From an uncultured Ignavibacteria bacterium (GTDB taxonomy: Bacteria; Zixibacteria; MSB-5A5; CAIYYT01): a stretch of 64,000 nucleotides of DNA. The notes under the pieces are model-generated. The model saw only the letters and a list, made by a program, of their open reading frames with translations, ran no database searches and had not been told where the DNA came from. Location of the stretch: assembly GCA_964552775.1 (NCBI GenBank), contig CAZKIH010000014.1, positions 26,991 through 90,990 of the forward strand, given 5' to 3'. Positions within the stretch are counted from its first letter, which is position 1, and every line of letters begins with the position of its first letter. Positions 6,786 through 61,553 of this stretch are shown here, one piece after another. Both the position numbers and the translations under genes were made by a program.

Positions 6786-8972
6786 ATGATCCGATTAATC
6801 CTCGTTCTCCAATTCGTCTTGTGTACGCTGGGTGCATCAGCTTTCGCGGAAAACAGGGCAGTCCCGCCACAATTCCACGCACGCAAAATCAGCGGCGCAA
6901 AATCGAAATCTCCGACGCTCTCGGCAATCAATAAGTCGGCAGTAAGTGTTCAGCCTCTTCAGAAGCCGGCGTTTGCTGACGCCTCGCACTGTACGGTCTA
7001 TGTCGATGAGCCGCAGAATGCGCTCTATGATTGGATGCTCGGGAACGAAATCTACTACGCGTATCAAGACCTGTTCTTTCCGAAGGTCTTCTGCGACACC
7101 ATCTATCCGTTTGTGGTCACTCATATCGGTATGACGCTCGTGCTCAATGACGCCGGAACGATGAATGTCCAGGTGTTTATCTCCGAGGTCGACCCCTTGT
7201 TTTCGTCGCCCGTTTGTCCAGTCCCGGGTGAGATTATTTATCTTGAGGACGAATACGCCGTTCAAATTCCGGGCGCGGATATCTACTCGGTTGTGATCCA
7301 ACTGAGCCAGCCGGTTCCGGTCTACGGCCCGTATTTTGCCTGCATCTATTTCGGCTCGGACATGGAGGCGATGTATCCCGGACTGGCGATCGACACGGCA
7401 GCCTATCTTTGCATCAACTACAATGAGTGGGGCGAAGGGTTGACCGACCTGGCATCGAATGACTACTACAACTTCCCCGGATCAATCCATCTCTACTCGT
7501 ACGGATACACAAAGGTCGGCATGTTGTCGCGACCGCGATTTATCGTGCCCTCCGATTCTGGCGTCACATTTCCGGGCAAGACCATCTGGGTGGGCGAGGC
7601 GAATGATGCAGTCACCTATCAAGGTGCGAAATTCGAATACTTTAAGGCTGGTGTCTGGTACGAATTTGGCGTCGATTTCAATGGCACCAGTCCATTGCGC
7701 GACGGCGTCAGCGCGGCAACAGCCGGTGACGGCTGGTCGACTGTCTGGCAGCCGTTTGGACTCAACGAAGGCAGTTATCCGCTGCGTGTGACAGTCGCCG
7801 ATTTTGACTCGACTTATGCCTCGGACACCGCGACCGTCTACCTCGACATGAAACCGCTCGCCGCCAAGTTCACGAGTCGCACCGACCTGATGTCCACCTG
7901 CGGCGCGGAGACGGTCAAGGTCTCGATCGAGGATGAAAACCCAATCGCTGTGACACTTGGTTTTCGCTATCTGCCAAATTTCGAAGAGCGCACACTGTTA
8001 CTTCTGAAGCGAAACGACTATGGTGATGTAAACGGCAATCCCAATGACGGCAACCACAACTACTCTGGTGAATTTGGTGAGTACTACTCGGCGCCGACAA
8101 TAGTCGCCGCGTTTCTCAAACATTGGTTCGACAAGGGTTACATCGAAGTAATGGCCGAAGGGTCAACATTCCTGACAATTCCCCAGCAGGTGGAAAGTCT
8201 CGCTGTTGATTTCACAACCCGCGTTAATCTCGGCACCGAGGATGACAATCTCGCGGCCGGATTGATCGACTACTTGAAGAGTCATGGCAATCGGATCAAG
8301 CCGGATATCAAGCCGAAACCGAATTGGGAGTGGTTCAAGTCGGCCTATCTTGGTCGTCTCGCGACCGTGATGCTGGCCGTCGACGGTCCGTTTGGACATT
8401 GGCTCGCGGTGCAAAAGGTTGACTATTCAGCAGCACAGAACGACAGTTTTCCGGTCACGTTCTATGATCCCATCGGCGGTCTGCTGAGATCATCTTTCCT
8501 GATCGCGCGCGGCGATTCACTGGTTCTGGGCTACTTGCCCAATAACAAGAAATACCGCGCTCAGCTCGGAATTGCACTCTATCCGAAACAGGAGGCGATC
8601 ACCTATTCGACCTTCTGGACGGACTTCAACACACTCGATGGCTTCTCAGGATTGCTGCCAACAGGCACATTCCAGGAAGACCTGCTCTATCTCGTGCGCG
8701 CGCGCGCGCTGGACGCCAACAACGACGTAGCCGACAGCTATTGGATCATCAAGAACGATTGCGTCCATCCGGTTGTGCACGGTGATGCCGATCACAATGG
8801 GCTGATTTCGATCTCCGACGCCGTGTACCTGATCAACTGGATATTCGCCTCCGGTCCCGCGCCGTATACGATGGCGCACGGAGATGCCGATTGCAGTGGT
8901 GTGGTTCAAATCTCCGATGTGGTCTTTCTCATCAACTATATCTTCGCTTCCGGTCCCGCTCCCTGTCCGTAG
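6786..8972 (+). CDS. Secreted protein with C-terminal dockerin-like repeat pair
   Basis: Signal peptide MIRLILVLQFVLCTLGASAFA; C-terminus VHGDADHNGLISISDAVYLINWIFASGPAP...HGDADCSGVVQISDVVFLINYIFASGPAPCP, two Ca-binding dockerin repeats. Confidence 0.75.
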   Translation: MIRLILVLQFVLCTLGASAFAENRAVPPQFHARKISGAKSKSPTLSAINKSAVSVQPLQKPAFADASHCTVYVDEPQNALYDWMLGNEIYYAYQDLFFPKVFCDTIYPFVVTHIGMTLVLNDAGTMNVQVFISEVDPLFSSPVCPVPGEIIYLEDEYAVQIPGADIYSVVIQLSQPVPVYGPYFACIYFGSDMEAMYPGLAIDTAAYLCINYNEWGEGLTDLASNDYYNFPGSIHLYSYGYTKVGMLSRPRFIVPSDSGVTFPGKTIWVGEANDAVTYQGAKFEYFKAGVWYEFGVDFNGTSPLRDGVSAATAGDGWSTVWQPFGLNEGSYPLRVTVADFDSTYASDTATVYLDMKPLAAKFTSRTDLMSTCGAETVKVSIEDENPIAVTLGFRYLPNFEERTLLLLKRNDYGDVNGNPNDGNHNYSGEFGEYYSAPTIVAAFLKHWFDKGYIEVMAEGSTFLTIPQQVESLAVDFTTRVNLGTEDDNLAAGLIDYLKSHGNRIKPDIKPKPNWEWFKSAYLGRLATVMLAVDGPFGHWLAVQKVDYSAAQNDSFPVTFYDPIGGLLRSSFLIARGDSLVLGYLPNNKKYRAQLGIALYPKQEAITYSTFWTDFNTLDGFSGLLPTGTFQEDLLYLVRARALDANNDVADSYWIIKNDCVHPVVHGDADHNGLISISDAVYLINWIFASGPAPYTMAHGDADCSGVVQISDVVFLINYIFASGPAPCP

Positions 8973-9398
8973 GGACGCCGATTTCATTTCCGCAAAGCAA
9001 TCAATCCTCGACGTTACGTCATTCCCGGGCGTGTTATGAAAGTCGATTATTGCTCATCGACTCTGACTTCTTGAAAACAATCGTTGAGCCAAGTCATTCC
9101 CGCGAAAGCGGGAATCCAGGTTTGTCTCCAGCGATTGAAGGACATTCGATCCAACCTGAATACTTTATCAACATCCCCTCCCGGTGGGAAAGCGAATCGT
9201 GTGAGTGCCCGGCGGTATCAAGACAACAACAAATTCTCGCGCCTGCCAATATCACTCCATTTTTTCGTTCAACCGGCAAATAGGGGAATCCCGAAACGAT
9301 TCACCTTGAATACCGTACAATTTATTATTATTGTATTTGATGTCCCTGATGTCAGGGTGCACAAAAGAGGACAATATTTTAACCACGGAGGTTTGACT

Positions 9399-10472
9399 GT
9401 GGACAGAACCGAACTGCTGTTAGAGGAACTTACCAACGCTTATGGTCCTCCGGGGCACGAAAGTGCCATTGCCGAGATATTCAAGAAGCATGTCGCCAAA
9501 CTGGGCAAGGTCTCATACGACAAGATGGGCTCGATCATTGCCGAGCGCAAAGGCACTTCCGCCGATCCGAAAATCATGGTCGTCGGCCATCTCGACGAAA
9601 TCGGCTTCATGATCACCGAAATCACGACCAATGGTTTCCTGAAATTCCTCCCGCTCGGCGGCTGGTGGGGCCATGTCGCTCTGGCACAGCGCGTGGTGAT
9701 CCTGAGCAAGAAGGGCCCGATCCTCGGCGTCATCGGCTCAACTCCCCCACACATTCTCGAACCGGAAGCCCGCAAGAAAGTCCTCGACATCACGGATATG
9801 TACATCGATGTCGGCGTCAAGGGCAAGTATGACGTTGCCAAGAAACTCGGCATCTCGGTCGGTGACGTAGTTCTGCCCGATTCAAAGTTCACGATCATGG
9901 CCGAGAAGGACATGTACATGGCCAAGGCGATTGATAACCGCTTCGGTTGCGCCGCCGCCATCGAGGTCATGTGGCGTCTTGAAAAAGTCAAGCATCCCAA
10001 CACGCTGTACAGCGTCGGTTCGGTGCAAGAGGAGGTCGGCTGTCGCGGCGCCGGCACAGCAGCCTGGATGATCGACCCCGACCTGGCGATTGTGCTCGAT
10101 ACCGGCATTGCGCGCGACACGCCCGGAATCTCCGGCGAGCCGAAGGAGAAAGTCGGCTCCGGTCCGTCGATACTTGTCGTCGACGGCGGCATGATTCCCA
10201 ACGTCAAATTGCGTCATTTCGTGCAGGCGACTGCCGACAAGATGAAGATCAAATATCACCTATCGTCGATTCGCGGCGGCACCACCGACGGTTCGCGCAT
10301 TCACATGTCGCGCCTCGGCGTGCCCTCGATCGTGATCGGCCCGGCTGTGCGCTACATTCACGGCCACAATGCGATCATGGCGCGTGGCGACTATGAAGCG
10401 TCCGTCAAGCTGGTCGTCGAGCTCCTGAAGAAACTCGACGCCAAGACCGTGAAATCATTTACGCAATCGTAA
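9399..10472 (+). CDS. M42 family aminopeptidase (FrvX/CelM-like)
   Basis: GGAGG then GTG at 9399; VVGHLDEIGFMITEI, GFLKFLPLGGWW, DNRFGCAAAIEVM, metal-ligand pattern of peptidase M42. Confidence 0.8.
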   Translation: MDRTELLLEELTNAYGPPGHESAIAEIFKKHVAKLGKVSYDKMGSIIAERKGTSADPKIMVVGHLDEIGFMITEITTNGFLKFLPLGGWWGHVALAQRVVILSKKGPILGVIGSTPPHILEPEARKKVLDITDMYIDVGVKGKYDVAKKLGISVGDVVLPDSKFTIMAEKDMYMAKAIDNRFGCAAAIEVMWRLEKVKHPNTLYSVGSVQEEVGCRGAGTAAWMIDPDLAIVLDTGIARDTPGISGEPKEKVGSGPSILVVDGGMIPNVKLRHFVQATADKMKIKYHLSSIRGGTTDGSRIHMSRLGVPSIVIGPAVRYIHGHNAIMARGDYEASVKLVVELLKKLDAKTVKSFTQS

Positions 10473-13852: not shown

Positions 13853-15052
13853 TTATACACCTCTCGGCTTCGCACCCATCCAGACCGGCATCACGCGCGA
13901 CAAGAGATAGAGAATGACAAAGGGCATTATCAGCATGGCTGTAGCCACCAGCAATCCTTCGATTCCGAACAACTGCAGCTTGTAAATCGTCAGTCCACGC
14001 AATGACTTCGAGAACAATTGTCCGCCGATTACCACATTCCAACGCGTGCTGAAAATTCCGATCTGCACCAGGACGGCGCAGACGAAATACAACAATCGAC
14101 GCATCTCGTCATGCATGCGGGCAAAACGCGCCACTGCCAGTCCAATCACGGGTATAGCGGATCCGATAATGATCTGGGTCACAATCAGGCTGATGAACAG
14201 CCTACTGCTGATCATCTGCGAGAGAATGTTGATTGATTCCTCCGACTCGTAAAGACGGTGCACAAAATCGAGCAGCTCCAGCGAGAAATCGAGGATCATG
14301 GCGTACATCAAGAATTCGCCCAGCTTGTTGAGACAGGACATGTCAATCTGGCGGCCGCGCAACAGCGACATCAGAAGGTACAGCAAGAGGATTATCGCGA
14401 TGCCTGATACGATAGCTGAGAATAGGAAGACGATCGGCATGAGCACGCTGCTCCACCACGGGTTTGCCTTGACCGATCCAAAGATAAACCCGACATAACC
14501 GTGCAGCAAAAACGCCGACGGAATACCGATTATCGTGATCACGCGACCGATCTTCTCGTCCCAGGCCAAAGCCTTTGGCGAAATGTCGTTGGCGCCGAGG
14601 GTCAGAATCTTATAGACCAATCTCCGCCAGCCGCGGCTGCTGTTTGACCAGACCACGAAATCGTGACGGTAGTCGAACCAGATTTCAAGCAGCAAAACCA
14701 CCATCAGATACCAGGCATAGACAAATCCGAACATCGCCATCGCCGAACTTGTGTGCGGAGTCAAGAACATTTCCATTGCCCGTTCCGGTCGGCCCAAATG
14801 CGCCAACAGTGGCAGTGGCGCCACAATCAGAAAGGCCAGTGCCCCCAGCAGCGACAGCCGGTAGACCGGTTGGAGCGCCCTGACTTTGAACACTCGTTCC
14901 AACGATGCCAGTATGAACGCACCGGCGACCAGTCCGGTCAGATAAGGATAGACAACGATCAGTATGCTCCAGTGGAGCTCGTATTCATTGGGGTAGATAT
15001 AGCCGGTCACTCCCGACAGAGCTTCTCCCGCCTGTCCAATAAGGTCGATCAT
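13853..15052 (-). CDS. NrfD/PsrC-family polytopic membrane subunit (quinone-interacting) of a membrane-bound oxidoreductase
   Basis: 399 aa, about 10 TM helices, typical of NrfD/PsrC/ActC/DsrP; start 4 nt after the stop of the FeS gene. Confidence 0.8.
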   Translation of the reverse strand: MIDLIGQAGEALSGVTGYIYPNEYELHWSILIVVYPYLTGLVAGAFILASLERVFKVRALQPVYRLSLLGALAFLIVAPLPLLAHLGRPERAMEMFLTPHTSSAMAMFGFVYAWYLMVVLLLEIWFDYRHDFVVWSNSSRGWRRLVYKILTLGANDISPKALAWDEKIGRVITIIGIPSAFLLHGYVGFIFGSVKANPWWSSVLMPIVFLFSAIVSGIAIILLLYLLMSLLRGRQIDMSCLNKLGEFLMYAMILDFSLELLDFVHRLYESEESINILSQMISSRLFISLIVTQIIIGSAIPVIGLAVARFARMHDEMRRLLYFVCAVLVQIGIFSTRWNVVIGGQLFSKSLRGLTIYKLQLFGIEGLLVATAMLIMPFVILYLLSRVMPVWMGAKPRGV

Positions 15053-15055
15053 AGA

Positions 15056-15826
15056 CTATATCACCTCTCCGTCCGCACCGGCATAGAAGACTTTGGGCTT
15101 TGTGTTGAGCCACGGCTTCAGGATGTTGACCTCGTTGAATCGCAAGAATCGGAGCAAGGGCGAACTGCTCTTGTCCAGTTCACCGAATACGCGAGCCTGG
15201 GTGGGGCAGACCTCAACACAAGCCGGTAGCAGCCCTTGCGTTATGCGGTGATAACAGAATGTGCATTTGTCGGCGACCTTCTTTTCGGGATGCAAGTACC
15301 GCGCTCCATACGGGCATGCCTGAATGCAGTAGCGGCAGCCGACGCAGTAGGTCTCGTCGACGAGCACGACACCATCGCGACTCGTAAATGTCGCGCCCAC
15401 CGGGCAAACCTGTACGCAGGGAGCTTGCTCGCAGTGGTTGCAGAGCTTGGGCACGAAGAAAGTCCGCAGTACCGCTTCACCATCCTCAATCTGACTGAAT
15501 CCATTGATGCCGCCATTTGGCGATTCGACAATAGTCTCGCCCTTGATCGGAACAACATATCGCTCAACCCAGGTGCGGAAAAACATCGGCTCCTTCGGTA
15601 CATGATTTTCTTCTTTGCAAGCAACGGCACAGCGACCGCAACCGATGCACTTGTGGATGTCAATCCCCATGGCATAGTTGTGCTGAGTCGGGTCGTAATC
15701 CTTGTTGCCCTCGGCCAGCAGCATCATCGGGTCAACGGTCGCCGCCAGTGCCAGCCACAAGGTCAGCTTCTGCGAGAGGTTGTCCATGAAGTCGCGTCGC
15801 GACATCCCGGGATGTTGAGTTGTCAT
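15056..15826 (-). CDS. Tat-exported 4Fe-4S ferredoxin-type subunit (NrfC/PsrB/DsrO-like)
   Basis: GGAGG then ATG 15824-15826; MTTQHPGMSRRDFMDNLS twin-arginine motif; four Cys clusters (CIGCGRCAVAC, CNHCEQAPCVQVCP, CVGCRYCIQACP, CTFC...CVEVCP). Confidence 0.8.
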   Translation of the reverse strand: MTTQHPGMSRRDFMDNLSQKLTLWLALAATVDPMMLLAEGNKDYDPTQHNYAMGIDIHKCIGCGRCAVACKEENHVPKEPMFFRTWVERYVVPIKGETIVESPNGGINGFSQIEDGEAVLRTFFVPKLCNHCEQAPCVQVCPVGATFTSRDGVVLVDETYCVGCRYCIQACPYGARYLHPEKKVADKCTFCYHRITQGLLPACVEVCPTQARVFGELDKSSSPLLRFLRFNEVNILKPWLNTKPKVFYAGADGEVI

Positions 15827-16566
15827 TGATAGGCCTCCGGATAATGAGGATAGTGGCACTCCCAACAAAGATAGCGCCCACCGTGAGTCTGCAGATCGAC
15901 TTTCGGGACCCCGCGGTCGCCATCCAAATCGAGATCGTGACACTTCCCGCAAACACTGCGTTCACGCGGTTTCTCCGCCTCTGTCGTATTCGGTTGCGTG
16001 AAATGTTCGGGCGGCACAATGTGGCACTCTGTGCAAGCCAGCGCCGCATGATGAGACGCGAGCTTCACATTGTAAATATTGCGATGGCAGGCACTGCATT
16101 CTGTGGCGGAAGTTGTCGGCAGGAGCGGATTATGTGGATCGTGGCAGCTCTGACACGGCTGACCGGGATTGTGACGCTCGGTCACAACCTGCGGAAAACC
16201 GGTTGGGCGTGAAATGTTATAGCCATGACAAAGCGGACAAAAATCGCGACCGGATGGCAAATCCGGAGTGTGCTCGTCGGGTGCCTCGATGTGAGCCGTA
16301 GATGGTCCATGACAGGTCTCGCAGGAGATGCCGCGATGATGCGATTTTGAGCGCTCCTCAAAGATGTCGTCGTGACATTCCATGCAAGCCTGGTATCCCG
16401 CATAGGCAACAGGCAACGCTTGAATTTCGTCCACTGCGGCCGCGCGGTAGTGACCGTATTCCCCAAATGTCTTGGGCATGAACAGAAATCGGCCCACAAA
16501 AAATGTGGCCACCACGAGTGCAAAGGCCAGAATCAACGGTCGTACCTGTTGCGGTAACCAATTCAA
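15823..16566 (-). CDS. Membrane-anchored multiheme (8 x CxxCH) cytochrome c
   Basis: N-terminal TM (LILAFALVVATFFVGRFLF); CMECH, CETCH, CPLCH, CQSCH, CSACH, CTECH, CGKCH, CWECH; its stop overlaps the FeS-gene start. Confidence 0.8.
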   Translation of the reverse strand: MNWLPQQVRPLILAFALVVATFFVGRFLFMPKTFGEYGHYRAAAVDEIQALPVAYAGYQACMECHDDIFEERSKSHHRGISCETCHGPSTAHIEAPDEHTPDLPSGRDFCPLCHGYNISRPTGFPQVVTERHNPGQPCQSCHDPHNPLLPTTSATECSACHRNIYNVKLASHHAALACTECHIVPPEHFTQPNTTEAEKPRERSVCGKCHDLDLDGDRGVPKVDLQTHGGRYLCWECHYPHYPEAYQ

Positions 16567-23545: not shown

Positions 23546-25090
23546 CTACCCCTCGCACGGCGGTGCCCCGCCACCAAAGATATAAAGTATCAAGTAAACG
23601 GCATCCGAGATATTGATTCCTCCGCTGCAATTGGCGTCACCAGCAGCAAGCGGATTGGGCGCTGCACCGCCGGCGAAGATGTAGTTGATCAAGAACACCA
23701 CGTCCGAGATGTTGACTACAGCGTTGCCGTCGGCATCGCCGGGAAGAAAGTCGCGGACAACGACTTCAAGCGAGTCGGACCATTGGCGTGCTGGTTCCCA
23801 ATCATTGCGCGACAGAACGCTCACCTGATAGACACCTTGGCTTGTCCAGGAGTAATTGACTTGGCAAGTGTCGCCAGACATGTAGGGACCCAGCCAGGCC
23901 GAAGAATCACCATTGCCGAAATCCCATCTGAAGTGCAGGGGACGAGCGGCGCTGTCCACGCAGCTCGTTGAATAGCTGCACGTCGAGTCTGGCATAACAA
24001 AGGAGCAACCCTCTGGAAGTTGAGCCCGATCTGGTCGAGGTGCGGTGAGCTCGCGACTGGCGACTTCGAAGCTAATCTGGAGCTGAAAACTATCGACATA
24101 GATCAGAGAAACGGAGAGGTAGAGATCGTGCGTGGACCTTGCACCACTCTGTCTGATTCGACTCGCATACGCGGCTGTGTCGGTTGCACCGCCAACCAGA
24201 ACATCATATCCTCCATCATAGTAGCATGTCGGAGTGTAACGAACATTGTATTTGCTGTGCAGGAATGAATTGGCAATCGAGTTCGAAGTCGGCAAGGCTG
24301 TGAAAAGGAACTGGTACGTGCCTTGAGTCCAAATCGTATGCAACGCAGACCGCGTCGCCGGGCAGTATCCTCAGCCACTGCTTGCTGCCCATTCGATAAG
24401 AACATTGTGCGTAAAGCTCCCGGAAGCTGTGTCGGTACCAGTCTGGCCGGGAATGGCCGCAGCGGCAGCGTCAATCCAATTGGCGGTGAAAAGGTACGAA
24501 GGAGGAGGGCCCGGGCTGGAGTAAGCCGTGTGGCCTTCTCCGTTGGAAACCGCGGCCAATACCATGATGTTGTCCTGCTGAATCACTCCAAACGAGGCGG
24601 AATTCCAGATGACGGTCTGCCTGATCGTGTCAGTATAACCGAGCGAGATCGATTGGTTGTAGGCAAAGTCGAGTAGGCCGAAGTCAAACGGGACTCCATA
24701 AGAGTCTGCGTAGCGAGATACCGGTTCAACTACGTAGACCCGTAGAGTACCATTGTAGACCGAGCTATTTAGTTTTTTCCCGGCAGGTGTTGCAGGCTTG
24801 GCGTCTTCTCGTGCTGAATCGTAATCAGGCTTTACAGATTGCGGGTCTGGTGGAACTTGTGAAAAGTCGTGTGCCAGAATCAAATCTTGGGCAGCACTTG
24901 CCCCGGTCTCGACCACTGCGGGGCTCGCAAAAAGGGGAACAGATATCACGAGCAGCAGGTAGACTGCACCAAACAATTTAGAAATTGCGCCCTCTATACG
25001 TAGTCCTGACCTCAACGATACATCCACGGCGCCATCTGGCGACCGGTGCCGCTTATTCTGTCGATCCCTGCGTGAAAAGCATGAACACAT
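23546..25090 (-). CDS. Secreted PKD- and dockerin-containing protein split by a single in-frame UGA (ORFs 24371..25090 and 23546..24343 share a frame); pseudogene, sequencing error or UGA recoding
   Basis: Read-through gives ...IEWAASSG-[UGA]-GYCPATRSALHTIWTQGTYQ... with continuous sequence character; PKD-like FRWDFGNGDSS; C-terminal dockerin pair GDADGNAVVNISDVVFLINYIFAGGAAP...GDANCSGGINISDAVYLILYIFGGGAPPCEG. Confidence 0.6.
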
Positions 25091-25164: not shown

Positions 25165-25282
25165 GCCTACCCTTCGCACGGCGGTGCTCCACAACCACAG
25201 ATATACTGAATCAAATATACAGCATCAGAGGTGATGACATCCCCACTTCAGTTCGCATCGCCTGAGCGCGGACAATGACCCA
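25165..25282 (-). pseudogene. Decayed remnant of a dockerin-module 3' end (intergenic)
   Basis: Minus-strand reading gives ...SGDAN*SGDVITSDAVYLIQYICGCGAPPCEG* with the same CCTACCC(T/C)TCGCACGGCGGTGC sequence found at the 3' ends of genes 23546.. and 49315.. Confidence 0.5.
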
Positions 25283-38617: not shown

Positions 38618-40657
38618 ATGCGTTTGAACAAATTGTTTCTAACGATCTGTGCAGTTCTAGGATTGAGTTTGGCATCAATCCCAACTGCGGCACAACCGTC
38701 GCCCGTGGCGAGGTATCTGTTTAACGGCAATGCAAACGATGAGAGCGGAAACGGACACAACGGTATTGTCACTGGTGCGATCCTGGTTCAGGATCGACAC
38801 GGCAACGACAGTGGGGCATTTGGCTTCAGTGCAGACGGCGACTGCATTACGGTCCCTCACTCGCCTGCACTTTATCCTGAATCTGGAGTTATTGTCGAAG
38901 GCTCGATCTATCCAACGGCCTATCCTCCAACCGATCATCAATTTGGACACTACATGGTATTGGGTAATCAAGGCTATGACCTCAGCATACGAAGTGATAG
39001 CACAATCAACTTCTATATTCTAAAGTCACTTTTGCCAGGCGCTGATTGGGAGCGAATTCCATCACTAAGCCCTATTCCGTTGAACCAGTGGACGAGCCTG
39101 CGCGGGGAGTACAGTTTCTCCACGGGACTCATGAGATTCTTTGTGAATGGAGAATTGCAGGGCACTAGGTCCATCAGCGTTTCTGGTTGGCTGGATCCTA
39201 ATTCGGATCTCAAAATTGGTGGACACTTGTGGGAAGGAGTGTCGTCTTTCCGAGGCAGTATTGATGACATCACAATCTGGGATTGGTGGCAGCCATCTGA
39301 CACCCTCCGCATCGGCAACCCAACCTGCCTACAGTCTGTTCTGCCAACCCAGCAGGCAGTTCCGATCTATCTCGACAATCCCGACACCGTCAAGGGCCTC
39401 GACATTCCGCTCAAATACGACTGGGCGAACGATCCCTTAAGTATCAGCTTCGCAGGAACCCGAATGGATGGTGTCTCAGGCGTACACTGGTCAATCGACG
39501 CAGATTCAAATCGTCTGCGCATTGTTTGGGGCTGGCAGGGCGACCCGAGCGAACTACTTTTACCGACCGATGCAACTTCAGCCAACCTGCCAATAGCGAA
39601 GATCGTCTTTTCTGCCGACTATGCCTGCATTGACGATTACACCTCGCCACCGGACACGACCTCAATCTGGGTAGGTGAAGACCTCCAGAGATTGTTGATC
39701 GTTGACAAGAATGCCGTCGAATACGTTCCCGTGGTCGATACCACCAGCACTCGAACGCGCCACTATCGAGTCGGGGATGCCAATTTCAATCAGTCCATAA
39801 ACATCTCGGATGCCGTGTTCCTCATCAACTATATCTTCGCAGCCGGAACAACTCCGGCCTGCTTCACCGCAGCTGATGTCAACGGTAACGGTATCATCAA
39901 TATCTCAGATGTTGTCGCGTTGATTAACTACATCTTCTCCGGTGGTGCAACTCCGGGTTCAAGCCAACTTTGTAGCTATGTCGGCCCTCTTTTCAAGTCA
40001 CAACCCGCCTCAGCCAATGTCGAGTCACAGGAATCTGTTACCCCCAATCTGAAGACAATCGACATCACAACGCAGACGACCTCTGAACTTCAGGCTGCTC
40101 AACTGACATTCGACATTCACGGGAAGGTGCAGAAAATTGAAGTCAACAGCATCGATCAGCGATTGCAAGTCTTTGGCGGCACCGCTGACCGCGAATACCG
40201 TGTTGGCTTAGTTGACTTAACAGCTGCCACGACTCTTCCTGCCGGAGAACATCAACTTCTGACAATTACTTACTCAGGCGAAGGCGAATTGACGATGCGC
40301 GAGGCTGTTATCGTTGACTCCGATGCCGAGCCGATGGTCACAACAATTCAATCGACCAAGGCAGAGCAGAGTCTGCCGACCGAGTTTACCTTATCGCAGA
40401 ACCAGCCCAATCCCTTCAATCCGACTACTGATATCAGCTTCAGCCTTCCACGTACGGGAGCCGTGAAGTTGGTAGTCTACAATATCCTTGGCGCGGAGAT
40501 CGCAACTCTCGTCGACGAAGTCCGGGCGGCTGGGATACACACGGTGACCTGGAACGGACAAGACAAGTCCGGCCGGGCGGTAGCATCGGGAGTCTATCTC
40601 TATCGACTGAGCACGTCAGACTTCTCGGCCACGAAGAAGATGGTGTTGATGAAGTAG
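38618..40657 (+). CDS. T9SS-secreted scaffoldin-like protein: LamG domain, two cohesin-like modules, dockerin-like repeat pair and T9SS type-A C-terminal sorting domain
   Basis: Signal peptide; LamG-like N-terminus; cohesin-like AVPIYLDNPDTVKGLDIPLKYDWANDPLSISFAG... and ...AQLTFDIHGKVQKIEVNS...; dockerin GDANFNQSINISDAVFLINYIFAAG...DVNGNGIINISDVVALINYIFSGGATP; C-terminus LSQNQPNPFNPTTDISFSLP...YLYRLSTSDFSATKKMVLMK. Confidence 0.8.
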   Translation: MRLNKLFLTICAVLGLSLASIPTAAQPSPVARYLFNGNANDESGNGHNGIVTGAILVQDRHGNDSGAFGFSADGDCITVPHSPALYPESGVIVEGSIYPTAYPPTDHQFGHYMVLGNQGYDLSIRSDSTINFYILKSLLPGADWERIPSLSPIPLNQWTSLRGEYSFSTGLMRFFVNGELQGTRSISVSGWLDPNSDLKIGGHLWEGVSSFRGSIDDITIWDWWQPSDTLRIGNPTCLQSVLPTQQAVPIYLDNPDTVKGLDIPLKYDWANDPLSISFAGTRMDGVSGVHWSIDADSNRLRIVWGWQGDPSELLLPTDATSANLPIAKIVFSADYACIDDYTSPPDTTSIWVGEDLQRLLIVDKNAVEYVPVVDTTSTRTRHYRVGDANFNQSINISDAVFLINYIFAAGTTPACFTAADVNGNGIINISDVVALINYIFSGGATPGSSQLCSYVGPLFKSQPASANVESQESVTPNLKTIDITTQTTSELQAAQLTFDIHGKVQKIEVNSIDQRLQVFGGTADREYRVGLVDLTAATTLPAGEHQLLTITYSGEGELTMREAVIVDSDAEPMVTTIQSTKAEQSLPTEFTLSQNQPNPFNPTTDISFSLPRTGAVKLVVYNILGAEIATLVDEVRAAGIHTVTWNGQDKSGRAVASGVYLYRLSTSDFSATKKMVLMK

Positions 40658-45270: not shown

Positions 45271-48141
45271 CTAATCGCAGGGGGCGGCACCGCCTGAAAA
45301 AATGTAGTTGATGAGATAGACCACATCCGAAATTGTGATGAGTCCACTGCAATTTGCATCACCGGCCTCCACGGGATCAGGAGAAGCGCCGCCAGAAAAA
45401 ATGAAGTTGATCAGGAAGACTGCGTCGGAGATTGTAATCATCCCGCTCCCATTCGCGTCACCAGGCACATAGGGTCTAGGAGGAACTATATACAGTGCAA
45501 ATATACGCGAGTAGTCAGAAGGCACCCCTGCGGAAAATGGTCTTACCCTCCAATAGTACACCGAGTCCGGTATCAAGTCAGCAGCAACTTTGAAACTAGG
45601 GGATGCCAAGCCCGAGACATCGTAGATCGGTGAGCGAAAATCGTAATAGCGATCCAGCTGAAGTTGAAAGCTGTCAGCCGCGGGGAATTTCTTGTCCAAG
45701 AGTCCCGACCAGTTCAGAGTCGGCCTAAGGTTGGGCCAGGGAAGGCCATTGGGCGGATTAATCGAGGATTCCGATTCAACAGTGAAATAGAATAGCATGG
45801 TGTCGCCGAAATCCGGTGTGCTGTAGTTGTGGAAGATCACGCGATTCTGGGTGCCGTCGATACGAATGCCGCAATTCAACCGAGAATCGGGTGCGCTGTT
45901 GGTTCTCCTGAATATAGCGAATTGGTACTCTCCGTATACTAGGTTGAAGTCAGCTGACGATTCATCGATCTCGCCATTTCGATCTGAGTCCAACCGCCAG
46001 TAATCGGCACTGGCGACAGTACGGTAACTTCGGGAGATTTCGAAGCTGTCTGGATTTTTGACGCCAATACTCGCGGTATTGTACACGGTTGCCACCATTT
46101 CATCGGCAAGAACGGGGGCATCAGGGAGAGTGTTAATCAATACGATTAAGTTGTCGATTGCAACGTATGGAAGAAGCGCGGCAATTGCAACATCGGGATT
46201 ACCATCCCGATCAAAGTCGGCCGAAGTGAAGGAAAACGGGACATTAGTAGTTGGCAGAGCAACGCGTTGGGCGAACGTGAAGTCTCCTCCCGCAAGGCCG
46301 AAATATATCTCCATTTCTTTCTGGGCGCCGTCAACGAGCACCAAATCGAGCCGATGGTCGCGATTGATATCAGTGGCCAGTACATTGTAGCAGACTCCTT
46401 GCACGGAGATCGAGTCAAGCCTTTTCACTCCTCCAAGGCCATCGCCAAGACCCACAAGAATGTGGCTGTAGGTAATACCACCTGGTGGTGGGATCATCAT
46501 CACGAAATCGGAATTCCCGTCACGGTCAAAATCGGCCATTGAGTTTGCAGTTGTTCCGCTGTACGAGGTTATGTTTAAAAGGAGATTACTCCAACTGGCC
46601 GTGAAATTGCCACTGCCGTCGTTCAAGAAAATGGTAACGCTGTTGACACCTGCGTAGCCGGCCGAACCAACGATATCGTCAAAACCGTCGCCGTTGAAAT
46701 CCGATACTTCCGCAGTTTTCACAGTGTCTGGAAATGTGGCAGAACTGAGAAAACCGCCTTGGCCATCTCCAAAAAGCATTCGGCGGGGAGACACCAGGAA
46801 ATCGGCGTACGCGTCGTCGTTGAAGTAGCCGATGCAAACATCGGTGGTGCTGATCCAACTGTGGCTGTAGCTTCGCGTTGTGTAGTTTCGACTCCCATTG
46901 TTAAGAAATATCTGAATTCTATTGTCGTCAACAGCAACTATATCCGGTAACGAGTCCTGATTTACAAATCCAACCCGTAGCCCAGCTCCAGAAACAAGGC
47001 TACTAATCTGTTGCGGAGTTGAAAAACCGGCACTGCCGTTCCCGTAAGACACCCAGACACCATTACGACTCAGCATCCCTGAGAACACAAGGTCGGCATT
47101 ATTGTCACGATCGAGGTCGCTGGACTTTATCGTCCAAGCTTCACAAGAAAAGGGGCGTTGAACATTGAATCCGACTACTCCGGTGCTGTCGATCACGGAG
47201 ACGAAGCTCGCCTTCACCAGGGTATCTGTTCCTGCAGAGCTGACAACAGATAGACTGACATCATACTCGCCGGGATTCGAGTAGGTATGGATCGGATTGG
47301 CCGCTGTGCTGGAATCACCATCTCCAAACCTCCAAAGCCAACTACCGATAGTTCCACATGTGCGTACTTCTTCAGAGAAAGCTACCTGTAACGGTGCGGC
47401 ACCGAATCGCGGGCTGGCAGAGAATCCGGTCGCCAGGCCTGAAAAATCAGTTTCTCCGACAACCTTGAAACGAGGATAGCCTGGGGCTGGTGCGGTCCAA
47501 AAATCGTTCCACTCGACCCATTGACCGGCGCTATACATCCAATTGTCGCATACCGTGGCTTCCGTGCTGTCGAACAAAACTGACGAATACGGGCCTCCTG
47601 ACGTGCTGCGATACTCGATACCCATGTAAAATGGACCACCAACACAAACTCTACCAGGAATGTCGACAGTTCCAAAATGCGGAAAGGCAAAGTGGCCAGG
47701 GAGGCATGTTACTCCAAATCTCTTTAGTTCCAGGCCCGGCCCAGCACAGGGGTTTCCTGAAACAGCCAGATCGTAGATTACGACGTCCACATCAACAGGC
47801 CATTCTGCTGTTTCCGGATCATAGAGTGTAAAGGAAAATGTATTGAAAATGAACGGGTAAGTAGGAGATCCCGAGCAGGTCGCCGGATCAAAATAGGTTA
47901 CTGTCCGAATTCCGTAGTCGTAGTCCTGCCAATAATAGCCGGAACCCGGAACGTCCTTCTGAAGTTGACAATTCGCAGTCGCATCGCTGTGATCTCGATC
48001 ATACAGAAGTGAATCTGAAACAGAAGTCGGTGTCGCTTGCTCGTTAGCCACCGTGAGAGGAGACAAGTGGAAAATCAGTAGTGAAACAATGATCCAAAGA
48101 CGCCAATAGTATCGTAACATGATGCCCTCCCGTTTGAGCAA
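45271..48141 (-). CDS. Secreted 956-aa protein with FG-GAP/VCBS-type beta-propeller repeats, PKD domain and C-terminal dockerin pair
   Basis: Signal peptide LWIIVSLLIFHLSPLTVA; repeated DxDxDGxxD loops (DLDRDNNADLVF, DFNGDGFDDIV, DFDRDGNSDFV, DINRDHRLDLV, DFDRDGNPDVA); PKD WRFGDGDSSTAANPIHTY; C-terminus GDANGSGMITISDAVFLINFIFSGGASP...GDANCSGLITISDVVYLINYIFSGGAAPCD. Confidence 0.85.
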   Translation of the reverse strand: MLKREGIMLRYYWRLWIIVSLLIFHLSPLTVANEQATPTSVSDSLLYDRDHSDATANCQLQKDVPGSGYYWQDYDYGIRTVTYFDPATCSGSPTYPFIFNTFSFTLYDPETAEWPVDVDVVIYDLAVSGNPCAGPGLELKRFGVTCLPGHFAFPHFGTVDIPGRVCVGGPFYMGIEYRSTSGGPYSSVLFDSTEATVCDNWMYSAGQWVEWNDFWTAPAPGYPRFKVVGETDFSGLATGFSASPRFGAAPLQVAFSEEVRTCGTIGSWLWRFGDGDSSTAANPIHTYSNPGEYDVSLSVVSSAGTDTLVKASFVSVIDSTGVVGFNVQRPFSCEAWTIKSSDLDRDNNADLVFSGMLSRNGVWVSYGNGSAGFSTPQQISSLVSGAGLRVGFVNQDSLPDIVAVDDNRIQIFLNNGSRNYTTRSYSHSWISTTDVCIGYFNDDAYADFLVSPRRMLFGDGQGGFLSSATFPDTVKTAEVSDFNGDGFDDIVGSAGYAGVNSVTIFLNDGSGNFTASWSNLLLNITSYSGTTANSMADFDRDGNSDFVMMIPPPGGITYSHILVGLGDGLGGVKRLDSISVQGVCYNVLATDINRDHRLDLVLVDGAQKEMEIYFGLAGGDFTFAQRVALPTTNVPFSFTSADFDRDGNPDVAIAALLPYVAIDNLIVLINTLPDAPVLADEMVATVYNTASIGVKNPDSFEISRSYRTVASADYWRLDSDRNGEIDESSADFNLVYGEYQFAIFRRTNSAPDSRLNCGIRIDGTQNRVIFHNYSTPDFGDTMLFYFTVESESSINPPNGLPWPNLRPTLNWSGLLDKKFPAADSFQLQLDRYYDFRSPIYDVSGLASPSFKVAADLIPDSVYYWRVRPFSAGVPSDYSRIFALYIVPPRPYVPGDANGSGMITISDAVFLINFIFSGGASPDPVEAGDANCSGLITISDVVYLINYIFSGGAAPCD

Positions 48142-57102: not shown

Positions 57103-57990
57103 ATGATAGTATTTGACATTGAGACAGTACCAGCATCGGCCGGTGAACTTGTTGATGCAGAGAGGTATATGGCGAAGCTGCCTGACGCCCGAGCTGCTTT
57201 CGAAAAATTTATGGAGTCCCCAAGTGTTGCGGGAGCCGAAAAAATCGAAAAGTATAACGAAGAAGTTTGTAAAGCGGCCTCTCCGGACACCATAGCCCTC
57301 TGGCAGATACTCCAGAGCCTGTTTCTAAACGGCTCGCCAATCAACGAAATTACCGTCCGCAATCAGTTACCGCGTGGACTGTCGATCGATTGGGCTTTCG
57401 AGCACTCGGACGTCTACAAAGTTGATGTCTACATCTCGATCTTGAAAGACAACTATCTGCGGCGTTCTCTCTCGGCGGCTACCGATCGGGTGACCAAACA
57501 GGTGGGTGATATGAGTGTATCGGCTTCCGCTGTCCGCGACGACCTGCAGCAGACGATCCTGGATCTTGCGCTGGATGACGCGGGACATCGGGACACGTCC
57601 GTCAAAGCCGCCTTGAAGGTCGCAATGGCTCAGGCGCGTGATAATGCGGCTATCATGCGCGAGCGAGGTATGATAGGCATCGACCTCTGCAGCTCGAAAG
57701 TCAACTGGCTGACCGCGGGTGCCAGACGCAAGGAGTTGACGATTCTGGGAGGTCTCACGGGCATGGGCAAGAGCCTCTACATGAACGCCCTGGTCGATCG
57801 CAACAGCCGGGTACTCCGTCGCCGCGGTCTGGTCATCAGCCTCGAGATGTCGGCCTCGTCCATCTGTTACCGCCTGATCGGTACGGCCTTTGGGGTGAGC
57901 GCTAAACGTTTCGCCACGGGGTTTATGAGAAGACAGGAGCTGGATGATATTGGTCGTTTCTTCATTTCTTTGCCCCCATGGCAAAGAGGA
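57103..57990 (+). pseudogene. Truncated phage/plasmid-type DnaB-like replicative helicase (N-terminal two-thirds only)
   Basis: ...GIDLCSSKVNWLTAGARRKELTILGGLTGMGKSLYMNALVD...GLVISLEMSASSICYRLIG (Walker A plus DnaB motifs), then low-complexity Arg-rich tail and a GC-content drop after about 57990; the ORF to 58269 is not credible. Confidence 0.5.
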
Positions 57991-58484
57991 CAATTCATAT
58001 CAATATTTTCACCCTTAAAGTTAGGAGCATGCATGTCAGTACATTCGGCAATCAGTAGGAGACAGAGAAGGCATTGTGCCAGGGCTCGCAGGAGCTCAGA
58101 GATCACTTCAACAACCTGGCTAGATGTGAGGGGGAATTGCAGCAGAACCAGGCAGCAAAGGAGTCGCCAATTTCTCGCTGGGAGGTATCAGCAGCGTCAC
58201 TTCCACGAAATCATGAAAGCGGATCGCTCAAGATCAAAACCTCGAATTTACACCAAGAGGACACCATGAAGAAACTCAATCTAACTTCAAAGTCTAGAAG
58301 GATGTCACAAGTAGCCATGAAACTGAACTTCGGAAACGACCACTAAATGGAGATCTGTGTGGAAGCCTATGAGTAGTATCAAAAAAACACAGTGTGTGAG
58401 CGAAATGGAATTCAGGACCCTGAATCCCGAGTCACCAAAAGTATCAACCTGTTCAGATGCCGACTGGACATTGCGAGAGAATTA

Positions 58485-58712
58485 ATGGACTGGAAAGAAA
58501 CAGTCGAATCAATAGCCGTCGAGTTAGGCAAGAGTACATCGTGGGTCTACAAGGCCACGAGCACCGGTATCCTGCCTTGTATTCACATCGGAGGAGGTCT
58601 TCGATTCAACAAGGAAGAAGTGTGGGCTCATCTTGCGGACCAGCGACCAAAGAAGCGCGGTCGACCGTGTAAGGGAGCACGCGATGTCACGAATCAAGAA
58701 AAGAGGCAATAA
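58485..58712 (+). CDS. xis: Excisionase/HTH_17-family DNA-binding protein
   Basis: MDWKETVESIAVELGKSTSWVYKATSTGILPCIHIGGGLRFNKEEVWAHL matches the excisionase/AlpA winged-helix pattern; overlaps the integrase start. Confidence 0.55.
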   Translation: MDWKETVESIAVELGKSTSWVYKATSTGILPCIHIGGGLRFNKEEVWAHLADQRPKKRGRPCKGARDVTNQEKRQ

Positions 58713-59712
58713 TTGGCAGCTCGACTACTATCTCAATGGACGGCGTTACCGCCGAAGCCTTGGCGAAATGACGAAGGCCAAGGCAGAAGAGATAGCACGC
58801 GACTATGAACAGCAAATAATCACCGGTCGACTTGGGTTTGAGACCAAGAAGTCGCCGTTACTGAGAGATTTCTGTCAGGATTACTTTGAGTATAGTAAAG
58901 CTAACCACGCGCCCAAGACAAGCAGAGATATTGCATTCACATTTGGCAAGAACTTGATTCCATACTTTGGCGATCAGAGGCTTTCCGAGATCGATTTTGA
59001 GCTAGTAGAGAAGTTCAAACTATCTCGCCGGGGACGAGTCTCAGACTCGACAGTGAACAAAGACCTTCGTTATCTGCGGGCGATGCTCAATTATGCGAAG
59101 TCTGTTGGAAAGATTGATGCCAACAAGATGGCCGGTGTAAAGCTCTTAAGGACGACGACGTGTACGGGCAGAATTCTTGATGAGTCAGAAATTGAGAAGA
59201 TCGGGAGCTCCTCGAATTTCTTGCGCCCACTCTTCCTAACTGCTATTCATACTGGCCTTCGCGCAAACGAACTATTCAACCTGAGCTGGGATGATGTGGA
59301 TTTTGGTGAAAAAACAATCACTGTCAGGGCCAAGGGTGACTGGCACCCCAAAAACTACAAAAATCGTGTTGTCCCGATGACCGAAAGACTGTATGATATC
59401 CTGCTCCAAACTCATAAGAGAGGGCATGTATGTGTCTTCACGTACGAGAATGGAAGAAAGATCAAAGACGTTCGGTCGGCGATAAGAAAACTCTGCGACG
59501 AATTAGACATCGAGATTTTCACCATGCATGATCTTCGCCGAACATTTGCGACATTCATGGGACACGTTGGTGGCGATATCCTCTCTGTGAAAGAAGCAAT
59601 GGGCCACTCAGATGTCCGCACAACGATGGGTTACATGCGCACAGGTCTCGATAGAATTCGCAAAACAGTAAACAAATTGCCGTTTGCTGAAAAACAAAAA
59701 ATCGTAGACTGA
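58684..59712 (+). CDS. int: Tyrosine-type site-specific recombinase/phage integrase
   Basis: N-terminal SAM-like domain plus catalytic domain with TGLRANEL (Arg), HDLRRTFAT (H-x-x-R), HSDVRTTMGYM (catalytic Tyr). Confidence 0.85.
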   Translation: MSRIKKRGNNWQLDYYLNGRRYRRSLGEMTKAKAEEIARDYEQQIITGRLGFETKKSPLLRDFCQDYFEYSKANHAPKTSRDIAFTFGKNLIPYFGDQRLSEIDFELVEKFKLSRRGRVSDSTVNKDLRYLRAMLNYAKSVGKIDANKMAGVKLLRTTTCTGRILDESEIEKIGSSSNFLRPLFLTAIHTGLRANELFNLSWDDVDFGEKTITVRAKGDWHPKNYKNRVVPMTERLYDILLQTHKRGHVCVFTYENGRKIKDVRSAIRKLCDELDIEIFTMHDLRRTFATFMGHVGGDILSVKEAMGHSDVRTTMGYMRTGLDRIRKTVNKLPFAEKQKIVD

Positions 59713-59840
59713 TTTAGGTAATGATTGTGACCATTTGTGACCATGACTTGAAAAAAAGAGCGGAAATTCGACAAAATCAGGCATTTGCCGGAGAATTTCT
59801 GCGAAAAGCTGGAATTGTTAAATTGTTATAGTCGAGTAAC

Positions 59841-61553
59841 TTACTCATAAGTCGTTAGAAAGCCGGTGTAGCTCAGTTGGTAGAGCAGCTGATTTGTAAT
59901 CAGCTGGTCGGGGGTTCGAGTCCCTTCACCGGCTTTTAACATTGTGGATGTTTGGTCTGTTAAGACGTTGACTGGCTGAATGTTACCGTAGATGGTAATC
60001 TCTCGATCCTCTGATGTTCCGGAAATCTTTACAGTCAATCGACCAGGAAACATCCTGTCAAAATGCCTCTTGATCTCGGATACAGTAGTTGTCGTCTGCA
60101 ATTTTTGAGCTACTGTTACCAGCAACTCTCTGACGCGCTCTGGTCTAAACTGTCGCGCAGAGATGTCCTCGCTCGCCTGAGAGTTCAATTTTTGCGTGAC
60201 TGCGGTCAGTTCACGTTCCTTCTGCCTTAGTCTCTCCGACACCGACTCCGATGCTTTCCCGGCTTCGATGTAATCGACGAGCGATTCAATTGCGTTCTTA
60301 AGTTCTCGCGATTTCTTAGAAAGCACCGTGCGATTCTCAACTAAGCTGGTCTTCTTGGAGGCCATATGTTGAGTGACCATCCCGGTCAGTCTGTCGACAA
60401 CGCTCCTTGAAACAAGTAGGCGCTGCAACCCCGCAGTCACATTCGAATCGACCTCATCACATGGAATTCTTTGATTGCAGCGACAGAATGCAGTACCGCG
60501 ATTTCTATAGCCATTGCAAACGTAGCCTGCCCAGTTCTTGCCCGATTTTCCGCCGACGTATGATGATCCGCATTCCGAGCATTTCAGTAGTCCAGAAAGC
60601 AGGTAGACTCCACGAGGTCCGGAGCGGAGCCGTTTCGGTCCATGATCATCGTTCAATGTTGTTTGAACCGCATCCCAAATCTCTTGCGGAATGATTCGAA
60701 GCGTATCGTCGATACGTTCGATCCAGTCCTCGGACGACTTGGGGCGACTCGAGCGCTTTGAAAATGACGTTTTCTTAATTGAGCGCGATTTGTTCCAAGT
60801 CCAGTCACCGATGTACTTGCGCTGACGTAACATACTTCTAATGGTCGAACTCGTCCAAGAGCCTGTCCGGGTTCCTTTGCCTGCGAATGGAGCTGGAATG
60901 CCTGATTCATTTAGGATTTTCGCTATTGACCTGAAGCCGTGGCCGTCCCGGCGCAAGTTGAATACACGTTTGACGATTTTAGCCTCGTCTGGACGTATTA
61001 CGGTTTTGACTCCATGGCGGCGCGGACGACCGAATTTGTCGTTTCCTGCTCCTTCGATTAGCTCAGATTGGGAGGAGTAGCCGAAGAGTTTACCCCCTGC
61101 TGAGTATCCTCGAATTACCTGGCCCTTCAAACCGCGAGTGATCTTGGCTTTGAGTTCGTCGAGAAAGAACTCGTTGGTTAAGCTCTTGAAGTAATAGGGC
61201 AATTTGCCTGAATCCAGTGAAGTGTCGATTCCGTCAGCGACTGCCACAATGGATACCTCAAGCACTCTGAGTTCCCGAAATACCTGAAGCGATTCAACAG
61301 CGTCGCGTCCAAGTCGGGACAAATCATCGACGACGATTGCATCAAAATGATTGGCGAGTGCTGCCCGCTTGAGGTCTTGATATGCGTCGCGATTAGTCTC
61401 GAGTCCGCTGATTGCTTCATCGGCATAAACGTGACTCTCGCTGAAGCTCCAACCTTTTCGATGAATGAAGTCAGTACATTCTCGAACTTGATCGGCTATT
61501 GAAGTCTTCTTCTGGGCGTCGCTGGAATATCTGGCGTAGATTGCACAATTCAT
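59841..61553 (-). CDS. Large serine recombinase (resolvase/invertase N-terminal domain plus recombinase domain plus zinc ribbon); the ORF's last about 30 codons are antisense to tRNA-Thr
   Basis: MNCAIYARYSSDAQ...SIADQ (catalytic Ser region), DDLSRLGRD, recombinase domain, CSECGSSY...CNGYRNRGTAFC zinc ribbon, coiled-coil tail; no stop until 59841, beyond the tRNA. Confidence 0.85.
   Translation of the reverse strand: MNCAIYARYSSDAQKKTSIADQVRECTDFIHRKGWSFSESHVYADEAISGLETNRDAYQDLKRAALANHFDAIVVDDLSRLGRDAVESLQVFRELRVLEVSIVAVADGIDTSLDSGKLPYYFKSLTNEFFLDELKAKITRGLKGQVIRGYSAGGKLFGYSSQSELIEGAGNDKFGRPRRHGVKTVIRPDEAKIVKRVFNLRRDGHGFRSIAKILNESGIPAPFAGKGTRTGSWTSSTIRSMLRQRKYIGDWTWNKSRSIKKTSFSKRSSRPKSSEDWIERIDDTLRIIPQEIWDAVQTTLNDDHGPKRLRSGPRGVYLLSGLLKCSECGSSYVGGKSGKNWAGYVCNGYRNRGTAFCRCNQRIPCDEVDSNVTAGLQRLLVSRSVVDRLTGMVTQHMASKKTSLVENRTVLSKKSRELKNAIESLVDYIEAGKASESVSERLRQKERELTAVTQKLNSQASEDISARQFRPERVRELLVTVAQKLQTTTTVSEIKRHFDRMFPGRLTVKISGTSEDREITIYGNIQPVNVLTDQTSTMLKAGEGTRTPDQLITNQLLYQLSYTGFLTTYE
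59862..59934 (+). tRNA. tRNA-Thr (anticodon TGT), no encoded CCA
   Basis: GCCGGTG-TA-GCTCAGTTGGTAGAGC-A-GCTGA-TTTGTAA-TCAGC-TGGTC-GGGGGTTCGAGTCCCTT-CACCGGC-T: cloverleaf with 7-bp acceptor stem, T-loop GGTTCGAGTCC. Confidence 0.85.

Follow-up and report, generated by a model that had tools for sequence, protein, structure and literature searches.

Does the UGA codon that interrupts a gene for a secreted protein in an uncultured Ignavibacteria bacterium end translation, or does it encode selenocysteine (Sec)? The gene lies on the minus strand of a 64,000-nucleotide (nt) stretch of contig CAZKIH010000014.1 (assembly GCA_964552775.1, positions 26,991 to 90,990), the whole of which is called the window below. 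Two open reading frames (ORFs), 24371..25090 (239 amino acids [aa]) and 23546..24343 (265 aa), are in the same minus-strand frame with one TGA between them. Comparison with homologous genes leads us to conclude that this UGA is very probably a genuine Sec codon followed by a bacterial selenocysteine insertion sequence (bSECIS) hairpin, and that the two ORFs would make up one gene for a secreted selenoprotein.

A preliminary description, made from the letters of the window, had proposed that the UGA alone separates the two ORFs and that read-through creates a U-x-x-C arrangement. Both points held. There is a single TGA, at 24373..24371 of the minus strand, and the translation across it is ...EWAASSG-U-GYCPATRSALHTIWTQ... 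(the residues before U are also given as FTHNVLIEWAASSG). The description had further noted that UGA is an ordinary stop elsewhere in this DNA, and indeed it terminates 9 of the window's 34 long reading frames; thus, the genetic code is the standard one. A scan of the window for further pairs of ORFs joined by a TGA yielded none that looked gene-like when their flanking translations were judged by eye.

The codon at the Sec/Cys column

Homologues were collected by scanning one genome per species plus the JGI metagenomes with the family alignment, and the U column was mapped in six-frame translations with a hidden Markov model (HMM). The preliminary description had named Cys in orthologues as one check on a Sec codon. 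Cys (TGT or TGC) was present at 64 of 92 distinct sites; the others had TGA (27 sites) or GCT, encoding Ala (1 site), and neither TAA nor TAG occurred. Besides the window gene, 26 distinct homologues from other bacteria have TGA, and no other stop codon, at this column. The CxxC motif was invariant in 96 Cys homologues. The single Ala member (L072, position 3046) has no CxxC (FATATFAWTDT) and has presumably lost its redox activity.

Genome labels place the TGA forms in 7 of 9 Zixibacteria genomes (including CP070796.1), 3 Ignavibacteria metagenome-assembled genomes (MAGs), and one unclassified bacterium. Cys is the residue in every one of the 13 Thermoplasmata MAGs; Sec use within the family is limited to bacterial members. 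The closest relatives of the window gene are in Zixibacteria-labeled MAGs. Another relative, L006, comes from a different sample, is 79% identical, and has the same TGA and hairpin as the window. In a Zixibacteria locus, L001, the sequence ...EECTWDG-TGA-PGCPSTRAAL... continues with PKD and dockerin domains, an architecture that it shares with the window. The first protein search had returned two full-length homologues with Cys at the UGA column, P0003 (...TTGCGYCP...) and P0004 (...SGCGPC...), a Zixibacteria protein, P0005, that terminates exactly one residue ahead of that column, and P0001, a copy of the downstream ORF only (79% identical).

Sec and Cys paralogues stand side by side in several Zixibacteria and Ignavibacteria genomes: at 9076 and 10490 in L008/L041, 1972 and 3385 in L011, 1692 and 3385 in L012, 392, 1884, and 3385 in L016, 3385 and 4318 in L017, and 9006 and about 10500 in L110. 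The family is one of Zixibacteria, Ignavibacteria, and Thermoplasmata in which Sec and Cys forms alternate, often as tandem paralogues.

Gene callers split the read-through gene into its 239-aa and 265-aa parts, and in NCBI records the window gene and its homologues P0005 and P0106 are separate or "partial" hypothetical proteins. Taken at face value, these annotations describe two genes, one for a beta-sandwich protein that ends at the UGA and one for an independently initiated PKD-dockerin protein. However, the thioredoxin fold would then be cut in two, after its first strand and before the CxxC helix. The downstream ORF has no possible start ahead of a TTG that lies within the hairpin, and its product would have no leader or signal peptide despite its secreted-protein domains. 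The Cys homologues, moreover, are single polypeptides of 390 to 440 aa. We regard two separate genes as very improbable. In CP070796.1, a closed Zixibacteria chromosome, UCD17930.1 (L110 10001-10546), labeled "partial," is a Cys-form member interrupted by an assembly N run, and the annotation has two separate genes in place of the Sec form directly upstream of it (8451-9845).

If the UGA is a Sec codon, the sequence beyond it is protein coding. The frame stays open for 186 to 649 codons after the TGA in 26 of the 27 TGA forms, some running to the contig edge; a typical run reaches the dockerin's end after 270 to 285 codons, and that in the window is 274. For the window against L006, dS is about 0.8 to 1.1, and dN/dS comes to 0.065 upstream of the TGA and to 0.163 downstream of it (downstream dS, 0.78).

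These values bear on an alternative raised in the preliminary description, that a recent nonsense mutation, TGC or TGT to TGA, left the downstream ORF as the decaying remnant of a pseudogene. A single substitution would suffice for such a change, and one homologue, L081 (729-776), does have a second in-frame stop, a TAG 11 codons past the TGA; for L081, pseudogenization or a sequencing error is likely. But the other 26 TGA forms have exactly one stop per gene, 27 distinct sequences spread over several phyla have the TGA at exactly the same column, the hairpin described below is specific to TGA forms, and a downstream dN/dS of 0.163 at a dS of 0.78 is not that of a decaying remnant. We therefore consider a pseudogene highly unlikely. 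The description's other alternative, a false TGA, fared worse still. The window is a metagenome-assembled contig, which makes a sequencing or assembly error conceivable, but an independent assembly, that of run SRR14932662 in Logan, matches the window at 100% identity for 3,603 nt, L006 has the TGA in a different sample despite its synonymous divergence, and the TGA of a Zixibacteria homologue is common to five assemblies. An error at this codon is extremely unlikely.

The hairpin downstream of the UGA

The mRNA 3' of the UGA is GGAUACUGCCCGGCGACGCGGUCUGCGUUGCAUACG. The preliminary description had drawn in it a 7-bp stem closing a GGUCU loop, about 20 nt after the UGA as in the SECIS of Escherichia coli fdhF. 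RNAfold predicted the same structure, with 7 bp (including one G-U pair), a 5-nt loop, and a folding energy of -9.9 kcal/mol when folded alone. The hairpin begins 13 nt, and its loop 19 nt, downstream of the UGA. The bSECIS model requires a stem of 4 to 16 bp, a loop of 3 to 9 nt with a G in its initial two positions, a spacing of 16 to 37 nt, and an energy of -7.5 kcal/mol or lower (PMC13188914). Scored with a purpose-written script rather than with bSECISearch, the window hairpin falls within all four limits.

Like the fdhF element, the window hairpin lies in the coding sequence directly after the UGA and has an apical loop that starts with GGUC. The spacing is 18 nt in fdhF (context GCAGGUCUGCA, from the K-12 genome) and 19 nt in the window (context GCGGUCUGCG). 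Unlike in fdhF, the stem sequence and lower part are of unrelated sequence and SelB binding is a prediction only; in addition, loops vary within the family (GGUCU, GGC, GUG, AGUU, and CGUGU), and registers differ by as much as about 3 nt.

Among the 27 TGA forms, 25 have a hairpin with a spacing of 17 to 21 nt and a G in the initial two positions of the loop. Stems of 5 bp or more centered at +20 to +30 were present in 93% of TGA forms versus 23% of Cys forms, and the median folding energy of the segment from +10 to +51 was -8.8 kcal/mol for TGA forms and -4.2 kcal/mol for Cys forms (Mann-Whitney P = 6.5e-8). Because TGA forms are richer in G+C and the peptide is itself conserved, each sequence was recoded 200 times with synonymous codons, and stems centered in the same interval were compared. 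The mean best stem of the TGA forms was 5.96 bp versus 3.89 bp after recoding; that of the Cys forms was 3.62 bp versus 3.64 bp. The median stem z-scores were -0.97 (Wilcoxon P = 8e-4) and 0.12, respectively.

The stems vary in sequence but keep their pairing (GCGACGC/GCGUUGC, CAACCAG/CUGGUUG, GCAAGG/CCUUGC, GUGCAG/CUGCAC, and CGGUGC/GCACUG). In 14 sequences that share the register of the window, 83.9% of the cells in the stem were paired versus 73.5% in shuffles, with none of 500 shuffles reaching the observed value; sliding the register gave 25 to 52%. Four core pairs were retained in all 14 sequences with both sides changed, i.e., they covary. Across the whole set in one fixed register, 66% were paired versus 59%, a count that is diluted because the register shifts between sequences. 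A covariance model built from the 14 hairpins scored its training set at 43 to 58 bits and TGA forms outside that set, together with a few of the Cys forms, at 16 to 24 bits; since these last two score alike, the model does not discriminate beyond its own register. Its only match in the window was the hairpin site, and the window sequence is among the 14 on which it was trained. Taken together, these comparisons support a hairpin that is specific to TGA forms, covaries, and fits the bSECIS model. Every feasible check named in the preliminary description favored Sec.

The Cys copies in tandem loci are mostly without the hairpin. A few, at 3385 in both L012 and L015, retain a degenerate version, which suggests recent switches between Sec and Cys.

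Several results weigh against a Sec codon. As a single sequence, the window hairpin folds no better than chance (z = 0.30 against dinucleotide shuffles), and the Rfam SECIS families gave no match, either in the window at the gathering threshold or in 24200-24500 at E values up to 10; because of these two results, the significance of the hairpin comes from the comparison of homologues alone. The G+C content is higher in TGA forms (0.50) than in Cys forms (0.42), a difference that the recoding control addresses. The 14 sequences in the window's register were picked by eye, which favors structure. Two or three TGA forms, L011 (1972-2019), L041 (1980-2027), and L008 (9076, the same as the L041 copy), all reading TRDG-U-PYCPWTR, have only a weak, mismatched hairpin, GG-A-CG/CG-C-CC, with an A-C mismatch and the loop CGUG(U/C). 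This element is noncanonical or decaying; its counterpart in L110 has a perfect 6-bp stem, AGGGCC-CGUGU-GGCCCU. In the 613 kb of loci searched (L001 to L110 plus the window, which is part of the genome), ARAGORN found no tRNA-Sec among 10 tRNAs, and tblastn with the E. coli SelA, SelB, and SelD proteins gave no match. Finally, the oxidoreductase function and extracellular location discussed below are read from the domains alone. A Pfam scan of the 20 larger ORFs of the window likewise found no sel genes or known selenoproteins.

The negative machinery search in these loci leaves room for recoding of the UGA as something other than Sec, by hairpin-stimulated near-cognate read-through with Trp or Cys or by another event in a cell that has no Sec machinery. 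RNA structure downstream of stop codons can in general promote read-through. However, the UGA position is that of the catalytic Cys of CxxC in all homologues, which is where known selenoproteins place Sec, and the bSECIS hallmarks of loop and spacing recur in 25 of 27 TGA forms. In addition, the archaeal members never use TGA, and UGA is an ordinary stop elsewhere in the window. We judge non-Sec recoding to be improbable and prefer Sec.

If the UGA is read by the known bacterial pathway, codon 240 would be decoded as Sec during translation, with the hairpin acting as a bacterial SECIS that brings SelB and Sec-tRNA(Sec) to the ribosome.

Domains, fold, and related families

The read-through product is predicted to consist of a signal anchor, a beta-sandwich, a thioredoxin-fold domain with U-G-Y-C in place of CxxC, a PKD domain, and a dockerin (Table 1). 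The PKD and dockerin assignments made in the preliminary description were both recovered by Pfam at the E values listed. Homologues likewise start with hydrophobic N-terminal leaders.

Table 1. Features of the read-through gene in window coordinates
Feature	Position	Strand	Details
Read-through coding sequence	23546..25090	(-)	514 codons plus TAG stop; Sec would be codon 240
N-terminal hydrophobic segment KLFGAVYLLLVISVPLFASPAVV, predicted signal peptide or signal anchor	24911..24979	(-)	Read from the translation
Beta-sandwich, N-terminal part of the conserved core (LRVYVVEPVSRY ... DAAAAAIPGQTG)	24413..24754	(-)	Family alignments and P0003 model
Thioredoxin-fold domain (predicted)	24086..24412	(-)	Strand THNVLIE, U-G-Y-C at the start of the first helix, TPT cis-Pro loop
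UGA codon, candidate Sec	24371..24373	(-)	First residue of the U-G-Y-C redox motif; aligned with the invariant first Cys of CxxC
bSECIS-type hairpin	24340..24358	(-)	5' arm GCGACGC 24358-24352, loop GGUCU 24351-24347, 3' arm GCGUUGC 24346-24340
PKD domain	23762..23983	(-)	Pfam PKD, E = 2.2e-5; PKD_4, E = 8.2e-5
Type I dockerin, C-terminal	23579..23743	(-)	Pfam Dockerin_1, E = 4.6e-7, residues 450-504

Profile searches placed the thioredoxin-fold domain only marginally. There was a weak Pfam match to Thioredoxin_3 (E = 0.045, residues 237-295) that begins at the U position. When the window protein was tested against PF00085, PF13098, and PF13192, it stayed below the gathering threshold (14.2 bits for PF13192, with 24.8 needed). 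Relatives do reach the thresholds for Thioredoxin and Thioredoxin_2, P0012 just passing (27.2 versus 27 and 23.9 versus 23.5). Solved thioredoxins gave only weak profile matches.

The fold was modeled with AlphaFold for the Cys homologue P0003, not for the window protein itself, with the 96-sequence alignment as input. The mean pLDDT was 88, and it was above 95 for the beta-sandwich strands. In this model the beta-sandwich (residues 33-140) is followed by the thioredoxin core (151-239), two more strands, the PKD domain, and the dockerin. The core runs beta-alpha-beta-alpha-beta-beta-alpha (strands E and helices H: E151-157, H164-177, E182-188, H193-202, E210-213, E218-221, and H228-239). C161 and C164 are at the N terminus of the first helix, C161 just before it, and P209 is invariant. 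Across the 96 full-length Cys homologues, the invariant residues are both Cys of CxxC, one His, and the cis-Pro. Core topology, a CxxC at the N terminus of the first helix, and a cis-Pro loop are thus all present in the modeled structure, as expected of a thioredoxin fold. Foldseek against the PDB returned single-domain matches only, the PKD domain to 4xed, which is the best match for the family's PKD domain in both structure and sequence, and a thioredoxin-related match to 3gnj.

Thermoplasmata members and one bacterial group have the two halves of the core reversed, with the thioredoxin part first, and TGA forms are found in both orders. HMM positions 110-241 precede positions 3-108 in L022-L035 (Thermoplasmata MAGs), L029/L080, L059-L071, and L086. 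In this arrangement the unit is circularly permuted or has its domain order swapped.

Known bacterial UxxC selenoproteins of the thioredoxin fold include Sec forms of thioredoxin, glutaredoxin, DsbA-like proteins, redoxin, and similar proteins (PMC13188914, table). The family described here resembles them in placing Sec at the N-terminal Cys of CxxC, where the first helix starts, and in having common Cys homologues. It differs in its fusion of the thioredoxin domain with a beta-sandwich, PKD domain, dockerin, and secretion leader, and in its marginal fit to thioredoxin models.

The selenoprotein models of NCBIfam release 20 matched neither the window protein nor five other Sec forms. One of those models, NF045500, is the Omp28-related selenoprotein "Hypothetical protein GOS_C," which has the motif UxxC (2026 review, PMC13188914). 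Among the 96 Cys homologues there were weak matches to NF033782 (42 sequences; best E, 8.4e-5) and to NF045500 (29 sequences; best E, 6.9e-5), with scores far below the cutoffs (about 15 bits in two inspected matches versus 200). The weak match of P0012 covers the CxxC region; that of P0003 covers the C-terminal dockerin region instead. We rejected assignment of the family to NF045500, since the window protein and the five other Sec forms had no match to it at all and the relatives stayed far below the curated cutoff of 200 bits. The two families have the UxxC motif in common, but in the window protein, unlike in the Omp28-related group (NF045500; Omp28 lipoproteins, NF033782/PF11551), the beta-sandwich comes first and the thioredoxin domain second. 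The subthreshold matches nevertheless suggest a remote relationship and point to the GOS_C UxxC selenoprotein as the nearest known family. In the literature we found no description of this thioredoxin-fold family or of Sec use in Zixibacteria, and a search on Omp28 and selenoprotein gave nothing on the family.

From its domains, the protein most likely works as a thiol-disulfide oxidoreductase outside the cell or at its surface. Attack would come from the selenolate as nucleophile, the oxidized state would be a selenenylsulfide with Cys243, and the dockerin would tether the protein to a cohesin-bearing partner.

Neighboring genes and implications

The neighbors of the family member in L001 (11785-20151) are dockerin-bearing peptidases of the C25, C1, and C39-like types; the window gene's own neighbors do not have this peptidase and dockerin theme. 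Type I dockerins are found at the C termini of many secreted proteins, in L001 over the same interval and in the window at 38618-40657 and 45271-48141. Besides the three kinds of peptidases, the proteins that end in dockerins include Laminin_G and FG-GAP/PKD proteins. This distribution points to a putative cohesin-dockerin surface system unrelated to cellulose degradation.

An orphan dockerin tail lies at 25167-25265 of the minus strand, in the 163-nt gap between a GH3-family gene and the selenoprotein gene. It reads ...SGDAN*SGDVITSDAVYLIQYICGCGAPPCEG and then TAG, closely resembles the 3' end of the selenoprotein gene (AGDANCSGGINISDAVYLILYIFGGGAPPCEG), and has an in-frame TGA (25248-25250) that aligns with Cys. 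It is probably the decayed remnant of a duplicated or neighboring dockerin gene.

Two other regions of the window may be mentioned. At 57103-63692, a tyrosine integrase gene (58633-59712, plus strand) adjoins a tRNA-Thr gene (59861-59935, plus strand), and DnaB-like helicase genes (57103-58269 and 61550-63043) flank the pair; the region looks like a mobile element integrated at a tRNA gene. At 13853-15952 (minus strand), an NrfD-type membrane subunit is encoded beside a 4Fe-4S dicluster protein, a quinol-oxidoreductase module like PsrBC/NrfCD, with no large molybdopterin subunit adjacent to it.

What the family does as a whole can be proposed only tentatively. It is possibly an undescribed family of surface, dockerin-tethered selenol-thiol oxidoreductases of Zixibacteria and Ignavibacteria from anaerobic sediments, with Cys-only members in Thermoplasmata, and these proteins may act on extracellular disulfides together with neighboring dockerin peptidases.

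No principle is changed by this finding, as UxxC proteins of the thioredoxin fold are the commonest kind of selenoprotein. Recognizing the Sec codon would, however, restore about 30 full-length secreted redox proteins that are now split into "hypothetical" and "partial" entries, and it adds a candidate selenoprotein family that lies outside every current NCBIfam selenoprotein model. The pairs of Sec and Cys paralogues, with hairpins that track the codon, are a natural data set on how a SECIS arises and decays within coding sequence. For the organisms themselves, it means that bacteria of the Zixibacteria and Ignavibacteria types very probably decode Sec.

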